IMG/VR virus record: IMGVR_UViG_2531839527_000011 | DNA: 19,093 bases | Direction: 5' to 3' (one strand) | DNA from: a virus | Lineage: Duplodnaviria; Heunggongvirae; Uroviricota; Caudoviricetes | Shown: positions 1,120-19,093 of the stretch, piece by piece | Position numbering within the stretch: position 1 is the first letter of the stretch | How the letters are laid out: each line of letters starts with the position of its first letter | Made by a program: the position numbers and the translations under genes | The notes under the pieces: generated by a model | Seen by the model: the letters and a program-made list of their open reading frames with translations, nothing else | Database searches by the model: none | What the model was told of the DNA's origin: nothing

Positions 1120-1357
1120 GAGTTAAAATCTCCTTCAGTGCATCATCATCGCCAGTATGAATTTCCGGCGCAATTCCCGTTTCACCAGGCCCAACAAATA
1201 CTGCTCGGCGATCTATCAGCCAACGCCCACGAATTTTTTGTGGTCTTGGAACGATGTATCCTAGTTTTCCGTATTTCACCAGGGTAGTGTTTGTTATTGG
1301 GAGACTGAACCGTTTTGGTTTCCATTCGTCGAGCGTTATCAGGTACTGTTCGCTCAT
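1088..1357 (-). CDS. xis: Excisionase (Xis-like), 89 aa from the internal ATG
   Basis: Immediately upstream of int and overlapping its start by about 30 nt, as in lambda. N-terminus YLITLDEW resembles lambda Xis YLTLQEW. GGAG 9 nt upstream of the ATG at 1357. Confidence 0.7.
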   Translation of the reverse strand: MSEQYLITLDEWKPKRFSLPITNTTLVKYGKLGYIVPRPQKIRGRWLIDRRAVFVGPGETGIAPEIHTGDDDALKEILTHVTEATKKQH

Positions 1358-1418
1358 GGCTATCACTCCGGAACGCGCCAGTTGCAGAATATCAACGATA
1401 ACTGGCGACGGTTGAACA

Positions 1419-2917
1419 TTAAAAATCAGCCTGATTCGGGATCAGTTTTTGCCAGATAGCTGAAACGTATTTTGCCTGGTGACGAGCGTCATCAAGTGCA
1501 TTATGGCGCTCACCTTCGAATGGAATAGCCGTTCTGGCATCGAAGTCTATGGCTTTCCCCAGCTCAACGATTGTGCGTACATCGCGATCGTTGTGTAACG
1601 CCACGGGCAGGGGATCCCCTGCCGTTCGTATGAACGGCGCAAAATCGTGTTGTCGAAGTTGGCTCCATTTCCCCAGACCTGAACAAAAAATTCACCGGAG
1701 TTTTCGTCGATAAATTCCCGCAATTGTAACAGTGCATCATCTAACGGGATTTCATCGGTCATAATGGCAGATTGCGCTTCGCGTGATTGCTTAAGCCACC
1801 ATTTAATGGTGTCCCGATCAATGACTCCGCCAGCAGTTTCCAGATCGATAGTCTTACTAAATTCCGGTCCCATATCTCCGGTTTGCGGATCGAAAAATAT
1901 TGCACCTATTGAGATAATCGGGGCATCGGGATTTTTTCCCATGGTTTCAAGGTCGATCATCAGATGAATCCCCGCTCTGCTGGTGGATGTGAGATTATGA
2001 TGACCGTTCGCCTTAATTAAGGGATCTGACGCCTCGCCAGTTTCACTATCGCTGGCATGATGCTGATTGCCGCCAGTGTTCTCCTTGTGCTGATGCGCAG
2101 TGCCTTCCATTTCCTCCGGATCATTTTCCTGAACTTCAGGCTGATTCTCTCCATCGAATATTTCCTGGTATGTTGCGTCCCCCATCACCGCACCACAATC
2201 AGGGCAGTTGCCGCCACCGCTCTGACCGCAGGCGGTGCAGATCTTTTCCGGTTCCTGTTGCACTACTGGTTCAGGTTGTTTCGTTTCTGGCTCGTTTTGT
2301 TGCGTATTTGGGCTGTTTTGTTCCGCTTTCTGGTCGTTCTGTTCCGTTTCTTGCTGGTTCTGGTTCACAGAATCGCGGGTTTCAATCCCCTTCACCCATT
2401 TCGGATCATTCGGGTCGCTAATCCCTTCAATAAATTCACCACGTGATGCAGCAAGCAACTTATCGGCGTCAGGCTGGCTGATATTGGCTGCCTGCATAAT
2501 TTTGTTTACTTCGTCAGCGGTAACTTTTACCGGTTCTGGCTGTGCGGTCGTGTCAGATGCACCAGTATTTTGTTGTGAACCTGAGCATGTACTGTTTTTG
2601 CGGGCGAAATATTCTTCTTTCGTGATTTCAGTAGCCCCGGCAGCCAGCGCCTTATCCAGACCAGAAAGTTTGTTTGCGCGACCGTATTTTTCGCCATCCT
2701 TGTCGGTGAAGAGGAAGTAGAACGGCCCCTCACGCTCTACAGATGGTTCGACTTCCACTTTGCATTCGGTTTTTTCGTTGTCCGGAATTGCCGTTTCCAC
2801 TGCATCAGTTTCTGGTACTGGCGACGAGAGAGTATCAGTTGCGCTCTGATTTGTTCCTTCATCTTCAAACACGCCCTTTGTAGTCAGGTATTCAGTAATG
2901 TATTTGTTCAGTGCCAC
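1419..2917 (-). pseudogene. DnaQ-like DEDDh 3'-5' exonuclease domain protein with a long low-complexity N-terminal region; exonuclease domain split across two frames
   Basis: ORF 1547..2917 carries Exo I-like (HLMIDLETMG) and Exo II-like (VWGNGANFDNTIL) motifs and ends WGKP*. Overlapping ORF 1419..1604 in another frame carries the Exo III-like motif HNALDDARHQAKYV. Adding one G to the G4 run (minus strand, plus coordinates 1557-1560) restores a continuous reading ...SLSWGKAIDFDARTAIPFEGERHNALDDARHQ.... Apparent GTG start at 2917. Confidence 0.6.
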
Positions 2918-3101
2918 AGGTCTTTGTGAATGTCGATCGGACGTTCACGACAAGGCCAAAAATAGTCTGGCGGTCGTAGCGAAGGGCATCAGGCTGTTTG
3001 CGCATTGATGCCGAGATACGCTTCCAGTCTTCGCGGTCGTTGTCGATAACTTCATTTTTTGCCCAGCGATGGATGCTGCCGTCAATGTTTCCGGCATCCA
3101 C
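2892..3101 (-). CDS. Small hypothetical ORF (69 aa), possibly a frameshift fragment of a neighbouring gene
   Basis: ORF in the six-frame track. It overlaps the end of ORF 3103..3885 by one base and the start of the exonuclease ORF by 26 nt. GTG start; no recognisable motif. Confidence 0.25.
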   Translation of the reverse strand: MDAGNIDGSIHRWAKNEVIDNDREDWKRISASMRKQPDALRYDRQTIFGLVVNVRSTFTKTCGTEQIHY

Positions 3102-3102
3102 A

Positions 3103-3885
3103 TCACCAGGCCAGAGAGCGTAGGCCAGTTCTCATCCAGTGTTTTCCATGTCTGCTTGTATTCGCGATGAATGGCAGCAATGACCGGGTTGATTTTTCCT
3201 GTTGAATTTTCAGTGTCTGTTGATTGGCTCTGGCGCGGGCGAGATCAACAACAGACGTGTATTTTCCGGTTTCCTTGCGTTCACCTTCGCGACGTTTTTT
3301 CCAGATGCGCATCTCTGCCTGAATTTCGGGCCATTTGGCACCAGGCTTACATTTATGCTTAACCCACCCGATGGCATGCAGCTTAAGCTCCGGATACATG
3401 GCGTTAACTTCTGGCATTTTCATCAACGCTTCAACGATATGTCCGTCGAATGTTGCCATGTCTTCCTGCAACAATTCCTGCGCGCTAATCACCATATCAA
3501 CGGTGATGTTTTCACATGTGTCGAACTTAACCATGACAGCGTTCTGTACTTCAGGGGCCAGCTTGTCAAAAGTGACGTTCATCGGATCTGATTCAGTCTC
3601 AACCGGGACAAAGGAAGCAGACTCCTCATCCCAGCGGTTTTCCTGCATATATTCAGCATCCCAGGAATCGAGGGCAGGGCGGGGTATACCGGGTTTATCC
3701 TCGCAAACAAGAAATTTATAAGCGCAGTCCTGAGCAGCCGGATAATGTTCCAGGAATTGCCAGTGAAATTTTGCGCGGGCGCGACGTTCATCACCAGCTT
3801 CAATGGCAGTGGCTACAGCGACGGCACCTTCTTCCTTTATTGCCTGTTCGTCCGGAATGGCGGCGCAAATAAAGACTTTACTCAT
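3103..3885 (-). CDS. Hypothetical early-left region protein (260 aa)
   Basis: Long minus-strand ORF co-oriented with the int-proximal early operon. No motif I can assign. C-terminal approximately 50 residues look low-complexity and may be out of frame. Confidence 0.5.
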   Translation of the reverse strand: MSKVFICAAIPDEQAIKEEGAVAVATAIEAGDERRARAKFHWQFLEHYPAAQDCAYKFLVCEDKPGIPRPALDSWDAEYMQENRWDEESASFVPVETESDPMNVTFDKLAPEVQNAVMVKFDTCENITVDMVISAQELLQEDMATFDGHIVEALMKMPEVNAMYPELKLHAIGWVKHKCKPGAKWPEIQAEMRIWKKRREGERKETGKYTSVVDLARARANQQTLKIQQEKSTRSLLPFIANTSRHGKHWMRTGLRSLAW

Positions 3886-3965
3886 TTTGTTTTAACCTCA
3901 TTACAGATTTAAGGATGAACAAATCCCTGCCATTGCTGGCATATAAAAATGAAACCGGATATTAA

Positions 3966-4169
3966 TTACGGTGCTGTTTTAAGTCCTGCCGGGATTTCGT
4001 TATTATCCTGGTGAATAACTTTATCGACCGGATAACAGTTACCGGGAATTTTCTGCTCCACTGCGGCAACCATGCATTCTTTCATTGAGCCGTATACGCC
4101 AGTAACCATGTCAACCGGTTCACCGGAAACAAGAAAAACCGTCAGAACAAGTGCAAATGTAGTATTCAT
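3966..4169 (-). CDS. Small protein with N-terminal hydrophobic/signal-like segment (YdfD-like), 67 aa
   Basis: MNTTFALVLTVFLVSGEPV... hydrophobic N-terminus. Start overlaps the dicB-like stop in an ATGA arrangement. Position immediately downstream of dicB matches the Qin prophage gene order as I recall it. Confidence 0.5.
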   Translation of the reverse strand: MNTTFALVLTVFLVSGEPVDMVTGVYGSMKECMVAAVEQKIPGNCYPVDKVIHQDNNEIPAGLKTAP

Positions 4170-6221: not shown

Positions 6222-6860
6222 TTAAATATCTTGTTGAATTTTAAAGCATACGCCCAATATGCAAGATAGATCATCCAGCATAATTGAAGGGTAGCGAGGA
6301 TTCGTGGGGACTAAAAGAATATCCGGCCCTTCTATCTCCAGTTTACGAATGACAGGTGTTGTGGTCCCTTTGGGTAAGGCAAGGACAATATTTCCTGGTT
6401 GTACGGTTCGATCGGGATCAACAAAAACTGTTGAACCATTTGGGATGGAAACTCCCCCACCAGATGTTGACATACTGTCACTCTCTAGAACAACTGCAAA
6501 GGTATTGGCCGGGATTTCTCCGACAAGCTGCACACAAGAGGTTATTGAGGAATTTTTCATATAATCACTCCAGCTTGCTGCCTGCTGAAGTGATAGTAGC
6601 GGAACCGTTTTTATCGGCGGTAAAGATAGATCAAGCGAATCACCTGTATTTAACTCTCCTCCATTAAGAAGCCAATTTTCGTTTACTTTCAATATCTTTG
6701 CCAGTGAACTTATGTAACGCGAGGACGGCGCTCCTCCACCGTTCATCCATTGACTTACGGAGCCTTTTGATGCGCCAGTGGCATTGACAAGGTCTTTGCC
6801 TTTCAGGTTTAGCGCATGCATACGTTGGGTTATGCGTTCAGATATTGTTTGCTTGCTCAT
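6222..6860 (-). CDS. CI-like prophage repressor (N-terminal HTH, C-terminal S24/LexA-like autopeptidase domain), 212 aa
   Basis: N-terminal HTH-like region (LKGKDLVNATGASKGSVSQWMNG). C-terminal domain has a Ser in a DSMS context and a Lys in VIRKLE at the spacing expected for an S24 Ser-Lys dyad. Divergent from the Cro-like gene. No SD sequence upstream of the ATG, suggesting a leaderless mRNA. Confidence 0.85.
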   Translation of the reverse strand: MSKQTISERITQRMHALNLKGKDLVNATGASKGSVSQWMNGGGAPSSRYISSLAKILKVNENWLLNGGELNTGDSLDLSLPPIKTVPLLSLQQAASWSDYMKNSSITSCVQLVGEIPANTFAVVLESDSMSTSGGGVSIPNGSTVFVDPDRTVQPGNIVLALPKGTTTPVIRKLEIEGPDILLVPTNPRYPSIMLDDLSCILGVCFKIQQDI

Positions 6861-6951
6861 GTTTTGATTTTAAAACACAGATGGTTTTGTTTCTTGACTT
6901 TCTTTGGTTTTGATTATTAAACTTTTGGCGTTCAGTTTTATGGAGCGACTC
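6861..6951. promoter_or_regulatory. Immunity-region operator/promoter region between the CI-like and Cro-like genes
   Basis: Three GTTTTG(A/T)TT repeats at 6861, 6884 and 6907, 23 bp apart. TTGACT -35-like hexamer at 6893-6898 oriented toward cro. 8-bp palindrome TTTTAAAA at 6867-6874. Confidence 0.5.
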
Positions 6952-7182
6952 ATGAAAAAATCAGAAGTATTAGGCTATTTTGGCGGAGTTGTTAAAACAG
7001 CCGCAGTTCTAGGAACGTCAAAAACCACAGTCAGCATGTGGGGGGAAGAGGTTCCGTGGAAATGGGCGTTGCTAATTCAGGCAGTCACTGCCGGGGCGCT
7101 CAAATATGAGTTACACATACCGACGGTTGTCATTCCCGGTTCTGATCATAATCCGCCTTCTAACCAAGGGGGGGATTCATGA
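6952..7182 (+). CDS. Cro/YdaS-like small HTH regulator (76 aa)
   Basis: ATG at 6952 with GGAG RBS. Small size and position divergent from the repressor. HTH-like segment VVKTAAVLGTSKTTVSMW. Stop overlaps the next start (ATGA). Confidence 0.7.
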   Translation: MKKSEVLGYFGGVVKTAAVLGTSKTTVSMWGEEVPWKWALLIQAVTAGALKYELHIPTVVIPGSDHNPPSNQGGDS

Positions 7183-7604
7183 AAATCAAGCATGAACACA
7201 TCCGCATGGCGATGAATGCCTGGGCGCGTCCTGATGGCGAAAAAGTTCCAGCAGCTGGAATAACCCAGGCTTATTTTGAGTTGGGTATGACGTTCCCAGA
7301 ACTGTATGACGACAGCCATCCGGAAGCCCTGGCTCGCAATACCCAGAAAATTTTCCGCTGGATAGAGAAAGACACCCCTGATGCAGTTGAAAAAATTCAG
7401 GCGTTGTTACCAGCGATCGAAAAGGCAATGCCACCTTTGCTGGTGGCCAGAATGCGCAGCCACAGTTCAGCTTATTTTCGGGAGCTGGTGGAGACGCGGG
7501 AACGACTGGTGAGAGACGCTGATGATTTTGTCGCAGTGGCAATCGCCGGTTTCAATCAGATGAACCGTGGTGGCCCGGCAGGAAATGCTGTGGCAGTGCA
7601 TTGA
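7179..7604 (+). CDS. YdaT-family protein (CII-position regulator), 141 aa
   Basis: Translationally coupled to the Cro-like gene. N-terminus MKIKHEHI... matches the start of Rac YdaT-like proteins as I recall them. Confidence 0.55.
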   Translation: MKIKHEHIRMAMNAWARPDGEKVPAAGITQAYFELGMTFPELYDDSHPEALARNTQKIFRWIEKDTPDAVEKIQALLPAIEKAMPPLLVARMRSHSSAYFRELVETRERLVRDADDFVAVAIAGFNQMNRGGPAGNAVAVH

Positions 7605-7675
7605 GTGATAATAGCCATATCGAATCACTTCCGGCAACTCGTGAGTAAAAAGATTCGGTATCAGAAGAGGTGAGT

Positions 7676-15141: not shown

Positions 15142-15827
15142 ATAACCAGTATTTACAGTTTGTTCGTGAGCAACTCATGATTGCCACCGCCGATTTGAGT
15201 GGATCAACAAAAGGGCAGCTTGAAGCCTGGCAGGAGAATGCCATGTTCGATACAGGGCGTTACAGGCGAAAAAAAATCCGGTACCGCGATGAAGTGACTG
15301 GAAAAATGATAACGCGGGATAATCCACCAATCCCGGGAAAGCAATCGCTGGCGAAAGGTTCATCAATTGCCCTGGTCAGTCCGGTTGAGTTTTCGACATC
15401 ATCATGGCGACGCGCCGTTCTGTCTCTTGAAGAGCATCAGAAGGCGTGGGTGCTGTGGGTATACAGTGAAAATCCGAGTTGGGATTATCAGGTGGTCATT
15501 GCGAAATGGGCGTGGGATAAGTTTCAGGTGCATTTTGGCACCAGAAAAATTACAGGGAAAACGCTTGAGCGTCTGAAGAAATTAATCTGGCTGGCGGCGC
15601 AGGATGTCAGGGGGAGGATTACTGGGCGTGACGTCTACCAGCGACAGGAACTTGCCAGACTGTGTGGAGTTAAGCCTGACAACTGGAGCCATAATTATGC
15701 GAACTACTGGCGTGAGATGTGCGACATTTTTAAGAAACTCGATACAGAATCCTTGATTTGCACCGTGAAAATGAGATCGCAACAAAAAGCGACCTTTTCA
15801 CGACGAGATATTGCAAAAGTCAATTAA
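15138..15827 (+). CDS. Putative late-gene antiterminator Q (229 aa)
   Basis: Sits immediately after rusA and immediately before a promoter-plus-terminator unit, which is the canonical Q/PR'/tR' arrangement. The protein is not confidently matched by motif; the call is positional. Confidence 0.5.
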   Translation: MNNQYLQFVREQLMIATADLSGSTKGQLEAWQENAMFDTGRYRRKKIRYRDEVTGKMITRDNPPIPGKQSLAKGSSIALVSPVEFSTSSWRRAVLSLEEHQKAWVLWVYSENPSWDYQVVIAKWAWDKFQVHFGTRKITGKTLERLKKLIWLAAQDVRGRITGRDVYQRQELARLCGVKPDNWSHNYANYWREMCDIFKKLDTESLICTVKMRSQQKATFSRRDIAKVN

Positions 15828-15839
15828 ATCGCATACATT
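15811..15839 (+). promoter_or_regulatory. PR'-like late promoter (TTGCAA -17- TACATT)
   Basis: -35 TTGCAA (15811-15816), 17-bp spacer, -10 TACATT (15834-15839). Overlaps the end of the Q-like gene, as lambda PR' does. Confidence 0.45.
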
Positions 15840-15873
15840 TTATGTAAATGTGATATTTTGCCGTATAGTGTGT

Positions 15874-15898
15874 AAACCCGCTTAAATGCGGGTTTTTT
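15874..15898 (+). terminator. tR'-like intrinsic terminator about 35-50 nt downstream of the putative late promoter
   Basis: AAACCCGC-TTAAAT-GCGGGTTT followed by a T-run. Confidence 0.65.
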
Positions 15899-15971
15899 GC
15901 TTAACTCTGTGGACCTTTTTATCTGTAGTTGTAAGATATGGATATTCTTACAATTTAGGTCGGTGAGCTTA

Positions 15972-16736
15972 ATGGAAGAACAGCACGGTAATTACTTTAT
16001 AAAACGAATTCAGTTGATTGGAAGGGGTGCATTTGGCTTTGTTGAACACGTTAAGGTTTACAACCTCAACAAGGGTGAATGTGGGGATTATGCTAGAAAG
16101 GTTTTAGCCCCCGAAAAACCAGAGCTTTTGGCGCAAATAGAGCAGTTTAGAAGGCGTTTTAAAAGGGAGGTCGTGTATCAATCACATTGCGTACATAGCA
16201 ATATTGTTCCTATTTATTTGTGCGATTTGTTTGCCGAGAATCCATGGTTCATTATGGATAAAGCAGAATGTGATCTTGAGCACGAAATAACGAACAACCT
16301 TCTTACAACAGATCAAAAAATTTCAATAGTGAAAATGGTATTAGATGGTGTAGCTCACATCCATGCGAAAGGCTATTTACACAGAGATATAAAACCATTT
16401 AATGTCTTGCGATTTAGCGACGGAACATACAAGGTGTCTGATTTTGGTCTGGTAAAAGATACAAATCCCGAAGGGGATACCACTAAATTGACCGAGATCG
16501 GTACCCGTATGGGAAGTACAAGATATATGGCTCCCGAGATTTTATATAATGCCGAGTATTCAGTTAAGACTGATGTTTATGCGGTGGGGCGGTTAATTGA
16601 GGACTTAAATTTAGATGATAAAAAAATAAAGCCTATCATAGCGAAGTGTACCAGGATGGATAAAGATGATAGATATCAGACAATAGATGATGTGGCGTTT
16701 GATTTTGTGCATTCTTTTTTAAGGAGTGAGTCATGA
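15972..16736 (+). CDS. Hanks-type (eukaryotic-like) Ser/Thr protein kinase, catalytic domain only (254 aa)
   Basis: Gly-rich loop IGRGAFGFV, Lys in YARK, catalytic loop HRDIKPFN, DFG, and YMAPE activation-segment motif. AT-rich. Confidence 0.85.
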   Translation: MEEQHGNYFIKRIQLIGRGAFGFVEHVKVYNLNKGECGDYARKVLAPEKPELLAQIEQFRRRFKREVVYQSHCVHSNIVPIYLCDLFAENPWFIMDKAECDLEHEITNNLLTTDQKISIVKMVLDGVAHIHAKGYLHRDIKPFNVLRFSDGTYKVSDFGLVKDTNPEGDTTKLTEIGTRMGSTRYMAPEILYNAEYSVKTDVYAVGRLIEDLNLDDKKIKPIIAKCTRMDKDDRYQTIDDVAFDFVHSFLRSES

Positions 16737-17476
16737 TTCAGCTGATAGCGACTTCATCATTCTCGTATCCAAAAGAACCAGGTAGGGTCAACGAAGATTC
16801 ATTGCTTCCTCCCAAAATTGTAGGGGATGGCATCTTATTTGCCGTAGCTGATGGTGTAGGTTCATACACTGGTGCCAGTCAGGCTTCATCAATGGCAATT
16901 GCTGAACTTTCAGCATTGACAAGCTTATCTTTTGACACAGTTCCGGATGTATTTGATGAAGTTAAGCGAAAGGTTATGTCGTTAGCTGATGTTAATGATG
17001 AGTTCGATAAAGCTGCTACTACACTTACGTTTTGTTATGTTTGTGATAGCGGAATTATTATTGGTCATATTGGTGATTGTCGTTTGTATTGCATTGGAGA
17101 GAAGAAAGCATACCAATTGACGAAGGACGATACCAGGCATCAGATGCTAATTGATCAGAATATTTTTAAACCCAGAGATTTGAAGGATAAACCGGGCAAA
17201 AATATCTTAACGACGGCTATAGCCTCAAATGTTGATATGGAATACGACTGTGATTTTATCACATGGAAAGATTTACCTAGTATTAACGGGGTATATCATC
17301 TGTGTATCATGTCTGATGGGGTTCATAACGTTTGGGAAAAACGCCCCAGATTTACATCAAATACGATGAGTAATAGTCAGAAGTTTTCTAATGGCATTTT
17401 GCGTCGTATAGAGAGAGCCGGACCTGATGATGACTTTTCTTTAGTAAGTATAATGGTGCGTGTGACGTCAGATTAG
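16733..17476 (+). CDS. PP2C-family (PPM) Ser/Thr phosphatase (247 aa)
   Basis: NEDS, AVADGVGS, GHIGDCRLY and MSDGV motifs correspond to the PPM metal-binding motifs. AAGGAG RBS; ATGA start/stop overlap with the kinase. Confidence 0.8.
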   Translation: MIQLIATSSFSYPKEPGRVNEDSLLPPKIVGDGILFAVADGVGSYTGASQASSMAIAELSALTSLSFDTVPDVFDEVKRKVMSLADVNDEFDKAATTLTFCYVCDSGIIIGHIGDCRLYCIGEKKAYQLTKDDTRHQMLIDQNIFKPRDLKDKPGKNILTTAIASNVDMEYDCDFITWKDLPSINGVYHLCIMSDGVHNVWEKRPRFTSNTMSNSQKFSNGILRRIERAGPDDDFSLVSIMVRVTSD

Positions 17477-17548
17477 TTGTATAAACTCAGTAGGGAATGC
17501 TAATTTCACATACAACATAGTTAAAGAAAACTTAATTTTAATGTAAAA

Positions 17549-17574
17549 AGGCTGCCCTCAGGCGGTCTTTTTAT
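17549..17574 (+). terminator. Possible weak terminator hairpin after the kinase/phosphatase pair
   Basis: CTGCC-CTCA-GGCGG stem (one G-U pair) followed by TCTTTTT. Confidence 0.35.
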
Positions 17575-17695
17575 GCTCGAAAATTGATGCAGTACGTTAA
17601 ACGCGCTGGTGGTTGCGAATACCGGTCTTTCAGCTTGCTGGCTTTTTAGACAAGAGTTATTGGTATGTCACGTTAACCAGAAAAGGGAAAAAGAC

Positions 17696-17893
17696 ATGCT
17701 AAAACAGCAGGATATGACCGAAACCGCCAGAGTGGTGTTTAATGAATTAAGCGTCACCGAACCGGCGACCGTCGGGGAAATTGCGCAGAATACTTACCTT
17801 TCACGCGAACGCTGCCAGTTAATCCTGACCCAGCTTGTTATGGCGGGTCTGGCAGATTATCAGTTCGGTTGTTACAGACGCCTTCTGCAGTGA
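17696..17893 (+). CDS. Hypothetical small protein (65 aa), possible DNA-binding
   Basis: Internal ATG at 17696 with AAAGGGAAA RBS-like purine tract. No motif assigned. Confidence 0.4.
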   Translation: MLKQQDMTETARVVFNELSVTEPATVGEIAQNTYLSRERCQLILTQLVMAGLADYQFGCYRRLLQ

Positions 17894-18043
17894 AGGCTTT
17901 TTAATTTGTGGTAATGGGCGGCTGGTGGGTGTTAGCGGCACCTGCCAGCCATCTGCTCATGCGTTGGGGTCACAAGCAAACCTCAGGCCCATCTGCTTTG
18001 CGCAAAAGCAGTATGAGCCTATCAGAGAAGTGCTTATTGATCT

Positions 18044-19093
18044 ATGACTAATACTGTAAAAATATCCAGTTGTGAGTTGATCAACGCTGATTGCCTGAAA
18101 TTTATCCAGACCTTACCGGAAAACTCTGTCGATCTGATAGTCACAGACCCGCCATACTTTAAAGTGAAGCCCGAGGGCTGGGATAACCAGTGGGAGGGCG
18201 ACGATGATTACCTGAAATGGCTGGACCAGTGTCTGGCGCAGTTCTGGCGGGTACTGAAGCCTGCCGGAAGTCTTTACCTGTTCTGTGGTCATCGCCTGGC
18301 ATCTGACACCGAAATCATGATGCGTGAGCGCTTTAATGTGCTGAACCACATTATCTGGGCGAAGCCGTCCGGACGCTGGAACGGGTGCAATAAGGAAAGT
18401 CTGCGGGCGTATTTTCCGGCAACAGAGCGCATTCTGTTTGCAGAACATTATCAGGGACCGTATCGCCCGAAAGATGATGGCTATGTGGCACAGGGGCGCG
18501 AGCTAAAACAGCACGTCATGGCCCCGCTGATTTCTTACTTTCGTGATGCGCGTAAATCACTGGGAATAACGTCAAAACAGATAGCGGAAGCCACCGGAAA
18601 GAAAAACATGGCTTCGCACTGGTTTGGTACCAGTCAGTGGCAGTTACCGAACGAGGGTGATTACAACAAATTGCAGGCGTTGTTTGCGCGTGTTGCGGCA
18701 GAAAAACATCAGCGCGGGGAACTGGAAAAACCACACCACCAGCTGGTCAGCACATACAGTGAGCTGAACCGGCAGTATACGGAATTGCTGAGTGAATATA
18801 AAAATTTGCGGCGGTATTTCGGTGTGACGGCGCAGGTTCCGTACACCGATGTCTGGACGCATAAACCGGTGCAGTACTATCCAGGAAAACATCCGTGCGA
18901 AAAACCGGCAGAAATGCTGCAGCAGATAATCAACGCGAGCAGTCGTCCGGGAGACCTGGTTGCAGATTTTTTTATGGGTTCAGGTTCAACGGTAAAAGCG
19001 GCGATGGCACTGGGGCGTTGTGCGATTGGTGTTGAGCTGGAGACAGGACGTTTTGAACAGACAGTCAGGGAAGTTCAGGATTTAATCGTTTGA
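18044..19093 (+). CDS. DNA methyltransferase, beta-class amino-MTase (N6-adenine or N4-cytosine), 349 aa
   Basis: Motif IV DPPY (VTDPPYF) near the N-terminus and motif I FxGxG (DFFMGSGST) near the C-terminus. Complete ORF ending at the last base of the window. Confidence 0.85.
   Translation: MTNTVKISSCELINADCLKFIQTLPENSVDLIVTDPPYFKVKPEGWDNQWEGDDDYLKWLDQCLAQFWRVLKPAGSLYLFCGHRLASDTEIMMRERFNVLNHIIWAKPSGRWNGCNKESLRAYFPATERILFAEHYQGPYRPKDDGYVAQGRELKQHVMAPLISYFRDARKSLGITSKQIAEATGKKNMASHWFGTSQWQLPNEGDYNKLQALFARVAAEKHQRGELEKPHHQLVSTYSELNRQYTELLSEYKNLRRYFGVTAQVPYTDVWTHKPVQYYPGKHPCEKPAEMLQQIINASSRPGDLVADFFMGSGSTVKAAMALGRCAIGVELETGRFEQTVREVQDLIV

Follow-up and report, generated by a model that had tools for sequence, protein, structure and literature searches.

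The prophage 3'-5' exonuclease gene that appears in separate reading frames in the window (the whole 19,093-nt stretch of viral DNA analyzed here, IMG/VR record IMGVR_UViG_2531839527_000011) is very probably an artifact of draft assembly, namely a consensus of three collapsed prophage paralogues. The split is almost certainly an error in the deposited sequence and not a real biological feature. The whole gene occupies positions 1419-3885 of the minus strand and measures 2467 nt, compared with 2472 nt (823 aa) in its orthologues. Five single-base deletions divide the 823-aa gene into called ORFs of 260, 69, 456 and 61 aa, and all five coincide with, or lie beside, positions at which three intact copies of the gene in a clonally related genome disagree.

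Source of the sequence

The four fragment proteins were found on one contig only, APXN01000039.1 of assembly GCA_000356385.1, which belongs to the enterotoxigenic (ETEC) Escherichia coli strain BCE030_MS-09. The window ends 29 nt short of the end of the contig. The strain is listed as BCE030_MS_09 with accession APXN00000000, run SRR446831, sequence type ST2353 and origin Bangladesh (PMC5469772, Table S1), and it was sequenced on an Illumina HiSeq 2000 with 100-bp reads and assembled with Celera Assembler (PMC5469772, methods). BCE019_MS-13 (AQCZ) and BCE032_MS-12 (APXO) are sister assemblies with this sequence type and pipeline.

The split gene as deposited

The N-terminal piece is a 260-aa ORF (3103-3885, minus strand; ENB29394.1) that is native up to the first deletion and continues as an out-of-frame tail. 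A 69-aa ORF (2892-3101, minus strand; ENB29393.1), the single member of its protein cluster, lies between the second and fourth deletions. It is followed by the 456-aa ORF (1547-2917, minus strand), which carries a CxxC...CxxC motif together with Exo I (MIDLETMG, D-x-E; 1937-1960, minus strand) and Exo II (GNGANFDNTIL, NFD; 1640-1672, minus strand) and of which the last 13 residues are out of frame. The C-terminal piece of the gene is the 61-aa ORF (1419-1604, minus strand), and this contains Exo III (HNALDDARH, H-x4-D; 1479-1505, minus strand). The 456-aa and 61-aa ORFs overlap by 58 nt (1547-1604). The first-pass annotation of this DNA had placed Exo I and Exo II in one frame and Exo III in an overlapping frame, and this arrangement was borne out by the two minus-strand ORFs.

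The same annotation had located the lesion inside a GGGG run (1557-1560, minus strand) and had proposed that insertion of one G there would restore an intact domain. Such an insertion does fuse both frames without a stop codon, but it leaves 13 wrong residues: the repaired stretch reads TTIAMYAQSLSWG in place of DNDRDVRTIVELG, and orthologues have (Y/D)NDRDVRTIVELG here. The score of the isolated domain against Pfam model PF16473 was 203.1 bits following the GGGG repair and 229.4 bits following a repair guided by the orthologues. Alignment to orthologues places the missing base at 1594/1595, 35 nt upstream of the run in the sense of the gene, and the earlier frame reconstruction was thus wrong as to the position of the repair. 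The GGGG run itself is intact in the window and has the same length in all intact alleles.

When window positions 1301-4000 were aligned with the intact 503025 gene, identity was 99% with five one-base gaps, and alignment to E. coli E1739 reproduced all five. The deletions, all in the minus-strand gene, are given here with the bases found in the three paralogues of E1739 (described below). Deletion 1, at 3216/3217, falls where all three paralogues differ (T/A/C). Deletion 2 is at 3131/3132 (T/T/C). Deletion 3 lies within 2949-2951 (GT[T/C]CG; T/T/C at site 2950), its placement being ambiguous in a two-base stretch, and deletion 4 lies within 2919-2921 (GAC[T/C]CTG), with T/C/C in the paralogues at an adjacent or equivalent column (2920). 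The frameshift responsible for the split between the Exo motifs is at 1594/1595 (CGTTAC[T/G]ACAACG; G/T/T), where the base lost is the first of a TAC (Tyr) or GAC (Asp) codon that follows ...PWRY. The four deletions upstream of it in the same gene had been overlooked in the first-pass annotation.

Comparison with the clonal genome E1739

E1739 is the closest complete genome and a clonal relative of BCE030_MS-09. Its potC prophage aligned to the window over 12.5 kb at 99.6% identity, and within this alignment the 2.47-kb exonuclease gene accounted for every one of the five gaps and for 33 of the 43 mismatches; 37 of the 43 mismatches were at positions 1849-4056. No indels were present outside the gene in the other 10 kb of the 12.5 kb shared with E1739. 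Sequencing error throughout the window was ruled out as an explanation, all five gaps being in one gene of the 12.5 kb. The segment at 1419-4056 behaves as a collapsed repeat, and outside it the window is nearly identical to the E1739 potC prophage.

Three intact copies of the gene are present in E1739: copy A in the potC prophage, copy B in the ompW prophage and copy C in a Qin-like remnant at ydfJ/ynfA. On NZ_CM180506.1 the copies span 1219749-1222220 (A), 1365652-1368123 (B) and 1681783-1684239 (C), and they are mutually 95.7-96.8% identical. The three-copy state is that of E1739, the clonal relative; most relatives show only two locations for the gene. In copy C (region 6550-10240 of the extracted Qin-like remnant locus), an IS3 insertion has taken the place of the 5' end; this copy is annotated as a 2457-nt CDS. 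No further copy was found at the E1739 Rac (ttcA) site, where there is no prophage, or in the segment preceding the Qin-like prophage.

The three copies split 2:1 at 136 sites, and at 130 of these the window agrees with the majority. The six exceptions comprise two deletion sites (3131/2 and 1594/5), one site at 2243 and three sites at the very 3' end of the repeat, at which the window follows copy A. Sites with a different base in every copy number only two, and the deletion at 3216/7 (T/A/C) is at one of them. The three copies disagree at 143 of 2472 columns, and each of the five deletions coincides with such a column or adjoins one (P ~6.5e-7), two of the five being placed ambiguously between the discordant column and an invariant neighbor (the 2950 and 2920 sites). 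Four bases upstream of the gene (3915, 4009, 4010 and 4056) depart from copy A, and all four are B-type; downstream of it, where the copies are strongly diverged, the window is purely of type A.

Comparison with orthologous genes

A 671-nt query had matches in 4,089 of 5,426 complete E. coli genomes, and a match to the gene was present in 4,782 of the 5,426, often in multiple copies. Matching features are annotated as one CDS of 2472 nt (823 aa), 'exonuclease' or '3'-5' exonuclease'. The best 60 matches in complete genomes were all 2472 nt in length, and the 823-aa ORF was uninterrupted in 77 of 80 IMG/VR alleles. The two-ORF arrangement, for which the first-pass annotation had suggested a comparison with orthologous prophages, is therefore not conserved, the orthologues being single ORFs of 2472 nt. 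Intact 823-aa genes of PHROG 2082 include WP_001763154.1 (potC prophage of E1739) and WP_126125348.1 (strain 503025). In both E1739 and 503025 the intact gene shares the setting of the window gene: it adjoins xis and int, in the same prophage, which occupies the same place in the chromosome. The xis stretch at about 1150-1350 of the window is specific to this prophage. The window DNA is 98.5% identical to the intact gene; the window version differs in being five bases short and in following the majority of three paralogues, which corresponds to no one natural allele.

No allele more than 98.5% identical to the window gene was found in complete genomes. The deletion at 1594/1595 was present in none of 7,838 gene copies from the 5,426 complete genomes, and a search of IMG/VR for the deletion junction returned no match. 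None of 6,684 copies was identical to the window over a 226-nt 5' segment, because the window has a lone A/B-type base at 3796 amid a tract of C-type bases.

The window gene was additionally compared with 82 intact alleles, 80 of them from IMG/VR, which were aligned with MAFFT at fast settings. Relative to this set the window gene has no private substitutions and five private deletions. Of the alignment columns 23.5% are polymorphic, and every one of the five deletions falls on such a column (P = 7e-4). Ten IMG/VR alleles were then picked solely for matching all 33 non-A bases of the window, and all ten differ from allele A at each of the five gap sites (81 of 2472 columns discordant; P ~4e-8). 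The length of the GGGG run is constant in 82 of 82 alleles, with G at all four columns in at least 80. In an ungapped comparison with the IMG/VR alleles, the flanks of the gene diverge and misalign.

Contig context

The window follows the potC prophage to approximately position 12,390 and the right arm of the ompW prophage from approximately 12,309 to 19,093, the stretch at 12309-12390 being identical in both. Positions 12309-19093 are 99.9% identical to the E1739 ompW prophage, with 6 mismatches in 6.8 kb. The switch falls near hokD and is probably an assembly misjoin. The potC and ompW prophages are co-oriented, and recombination between them would remove ~146 kb of chromosome. A misjoin is the simpler reading because real recombination would delete this interval, which on the E. 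coli map holds essential genes.

Two other genes in the potC portion, a cro-like gene (~6952-7195) and a DUF4406 gene (~9206-9501), are annotated as frameshifted in E1739, and the DUF4406 gene is also split on the contig of the window, into calls of 43 and 57 aa. Unlike the exonuclease deletions, these frameshifts look inherited in the lineage, since the region aligns to E1739 without gaps. In the ompW portion, two adjacent plus-strand ORFs of 279 and 247 aa (15897-17476) correspond to the serine/threonine protein kinase and PP2C phosphatase of the E1739 ompW prophage, which are found at 39532-41036 of the extracted ompW-prophage locus.

Predicted function of the gene product

After repair, the 823-aa protein has an end-to-end match to PHROG 2082 ('exonuclease'). 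The Pfam domains YdfE_N and YdfE_C were detected on the N-terminal fragment, and a Rv2179c-like domain was likewise detected on the deposited fragments. Residues 642-813 form a complete Rv2179c-like domain (PF16473), matching model positions 2-177 of 177 at 225 bits when the full-length protein is searched and at 229.4 bits as the isolated domain, against a cut-off of 27. The repaired domain carries Exo I (D-x-E), Exo II (NFD) and Exo III (H-x4-D), which as deposited are spread over two frames. Judged by its sequence, the C-terminal module is a predicted DEDDh 3'-5' exonuclease of the Rv2179c-like type. The full model of the Rv2179c-like 3'-5' exoribonuclease domain, a member of the DEDDh/RNase T-like superfamily, is matched with all three Exo motifs, and what sets the present domain apart is that it forms the C-terminal part of a phage protein far larger than itself. 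A search of the Rv2179c literature found nothing relevant. A CxxC...CxxC motif (CTACGQSGGGNCPDCG; 2192-2239, minus strand) is a possible zinc ribbon and sits in a low-complexity linker rich in Q, E and N, ahead of the exonuclease domain.

The gene occupies a genomic position in lambdoid prophages equivalent to that of recE (exodeoxyribonuclease VIII) in the Rac prophage. Residues 246-626 of the protein are homologous to positions 271-603 (of 877) of the RecE model NF007259, which is a non-catalytic part of that protein; the nuclease domain of RecE is C-terminal. The C-terminal region of RecE is absent from the match, and the DEDDh 3'-5' exonuclease domain stands in its place. The protein scored 269 bits against NF007259, far below the cut-off of 1269 for RecE membership. 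From its predicted domain content, the exonuclease gene is distinct from recE. Its frequent misannotation as exonuclease VIII ('exodeoxyribonuclease VIII') is explained by the homology of the central part of the protein with RecE. The closest solved structure by sequence is PDB 8KEL/8KEN ('Exodeoxyribonuclease', 227 aa; E = 4e-7), which aligns from Exo I to Exo II and thus with the N-terminal half of the domain only, at low identity. This protein may be phage T4 DexA.

Origin of the deletions

By analogy with E1739, BCE030_MS-09 likely has three intact, ~96% identical copies of the gene, in the potC, ompW and ydfJ/ynfA prophages. Reads of all three copies would have been piled into one consensus that was put in the potC-prophage contig, with the majority base taken at nearly every copy-discordant site. 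At five such sites, the alternative bases probably ended up in different columns of the alignment, so that a gap was the commonest state and the base was lost; each spurious frameshift would then be a base dropped in consensus calling. The expectation is that in the living strain the potC copy is unbroken, a single ORF for the predicted DEDDh 3'-5' exonuclease. Four things are direct observations: the bases follow the majority, the deletions are located at discordant sites, the anomalies are limited to the repeat, and the deletions were seen nowhere else. They resemble the collapsed-repeat consensus errors of short-read drafts, in which a multicopy gene, as the exonuclease gene probably is in this strain, is represented by a majority consensus with indels at copy-discordant sites. 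In both cases the anomalies are limited to the repeated segment, accompanied here by a probable misjoin in the same contig; the comparison draws on the assembled sequence. A natural allele of central, ancestor-like position would also mimic a majority consensus. Such an allele is disfavored because it leaves the deletions at discordant sites unexplained and was unseen in more than 10,000 sampled copies.

The first-pass annotation had offered sequencing error at a homopolymer, genuine prophage decay and slippage-prone phase variation as explanations of the split. An error in the deposited sequence is indeed favored, but the site is discordant among paralogues and is not a homopolymer miscall.

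Decay, according to which the potC copy truly gained five single-base deletions, is improbable. Prophage genes often decay, the neighboring cro-like and DUF4406 genes are annotated as frameshifted in E1739, and the deletions are present in the deposited sequence. A gene decaying in this manner would nevertheless have acquired five private deletions and no private substitutions, with every deletion at a paralogue-discordant site (P ~6.5e-7) and with bases following the three-paralogue majority at 130 of 136 sites. No other, independent assembly contains the fragment proteins or the 1594/1595 junction, the clonal complete genomes have the gene intact, and the rest of the 12.5 kb shared with the clonal relative contains no indels.

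About as improbable is an in-vivo mosaic, in which gene conversion among the three paralogues was accompanied by faulty processing of heteroduplex mismatches that removed single bases. This process would likewise place deletions at discordant sites and produce a mosaic without private substitutions. We know of no repair pathway that makes 1-nt deletions specifically at mismatches, the lone switch at 3796 within a dense tract fits vote counting better than conversion tracts, and the same contig contains a probable potC/ompW misjoin. If true, the mosaic would amount to a mismatch-targeted route to pseudogenes for multicopy prophage genes.

Phase variation, with slippage in the G4 run at 1557-1560 toggling the exonuclease, can be given almost no credence. 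Its attraction is that one added G in the run brings the two frames together with no intervening stop codon; the missing base is nevertheless at 1594/1595, outside the run, and the length of the run is identical in 82 alleles. A four-base run is too short for a typical contingency locus. A repair at the run yields a protein with 13 wrong residues, at a cost of 26 bits in the domain-model score, and the four upstream frameshifts would still inactivate the gene. Programmed ribosomal frameshifting that joins the 456-aa and 61-aa ORFs in translation is equally remote: the ORFs do overlap by 58 nt and give a complete domain when combined, but the orthologues are single ORFs (77 of 80 IMG/VR alleles, and 2472 nt in each of the best 60 complete-genome matches), inspection of the sequence CGTTACACAACG revealed no slippery heptamer (X XXY YYZ), and the gene is broken at four other places.

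Implications

The split gene carries little biological weight. It is a very common prophage exonuclease that is normally intact, and there is no sign that it is regulated by frameshifting or subject to phase variation. What the probable consensus of collapsed paralogues offers is a caution. Multicopy prophage genes in short-read drafts can appear as a majority consensus with spurious single-base deletions, and such artifacts mimic pseudogenes or genes controlled by frameshifting. Pseudogene counts, pan-genome gene calls and claims of 'split genes' drawn from contigs of this kind need to be checked against reads or closed genomes.
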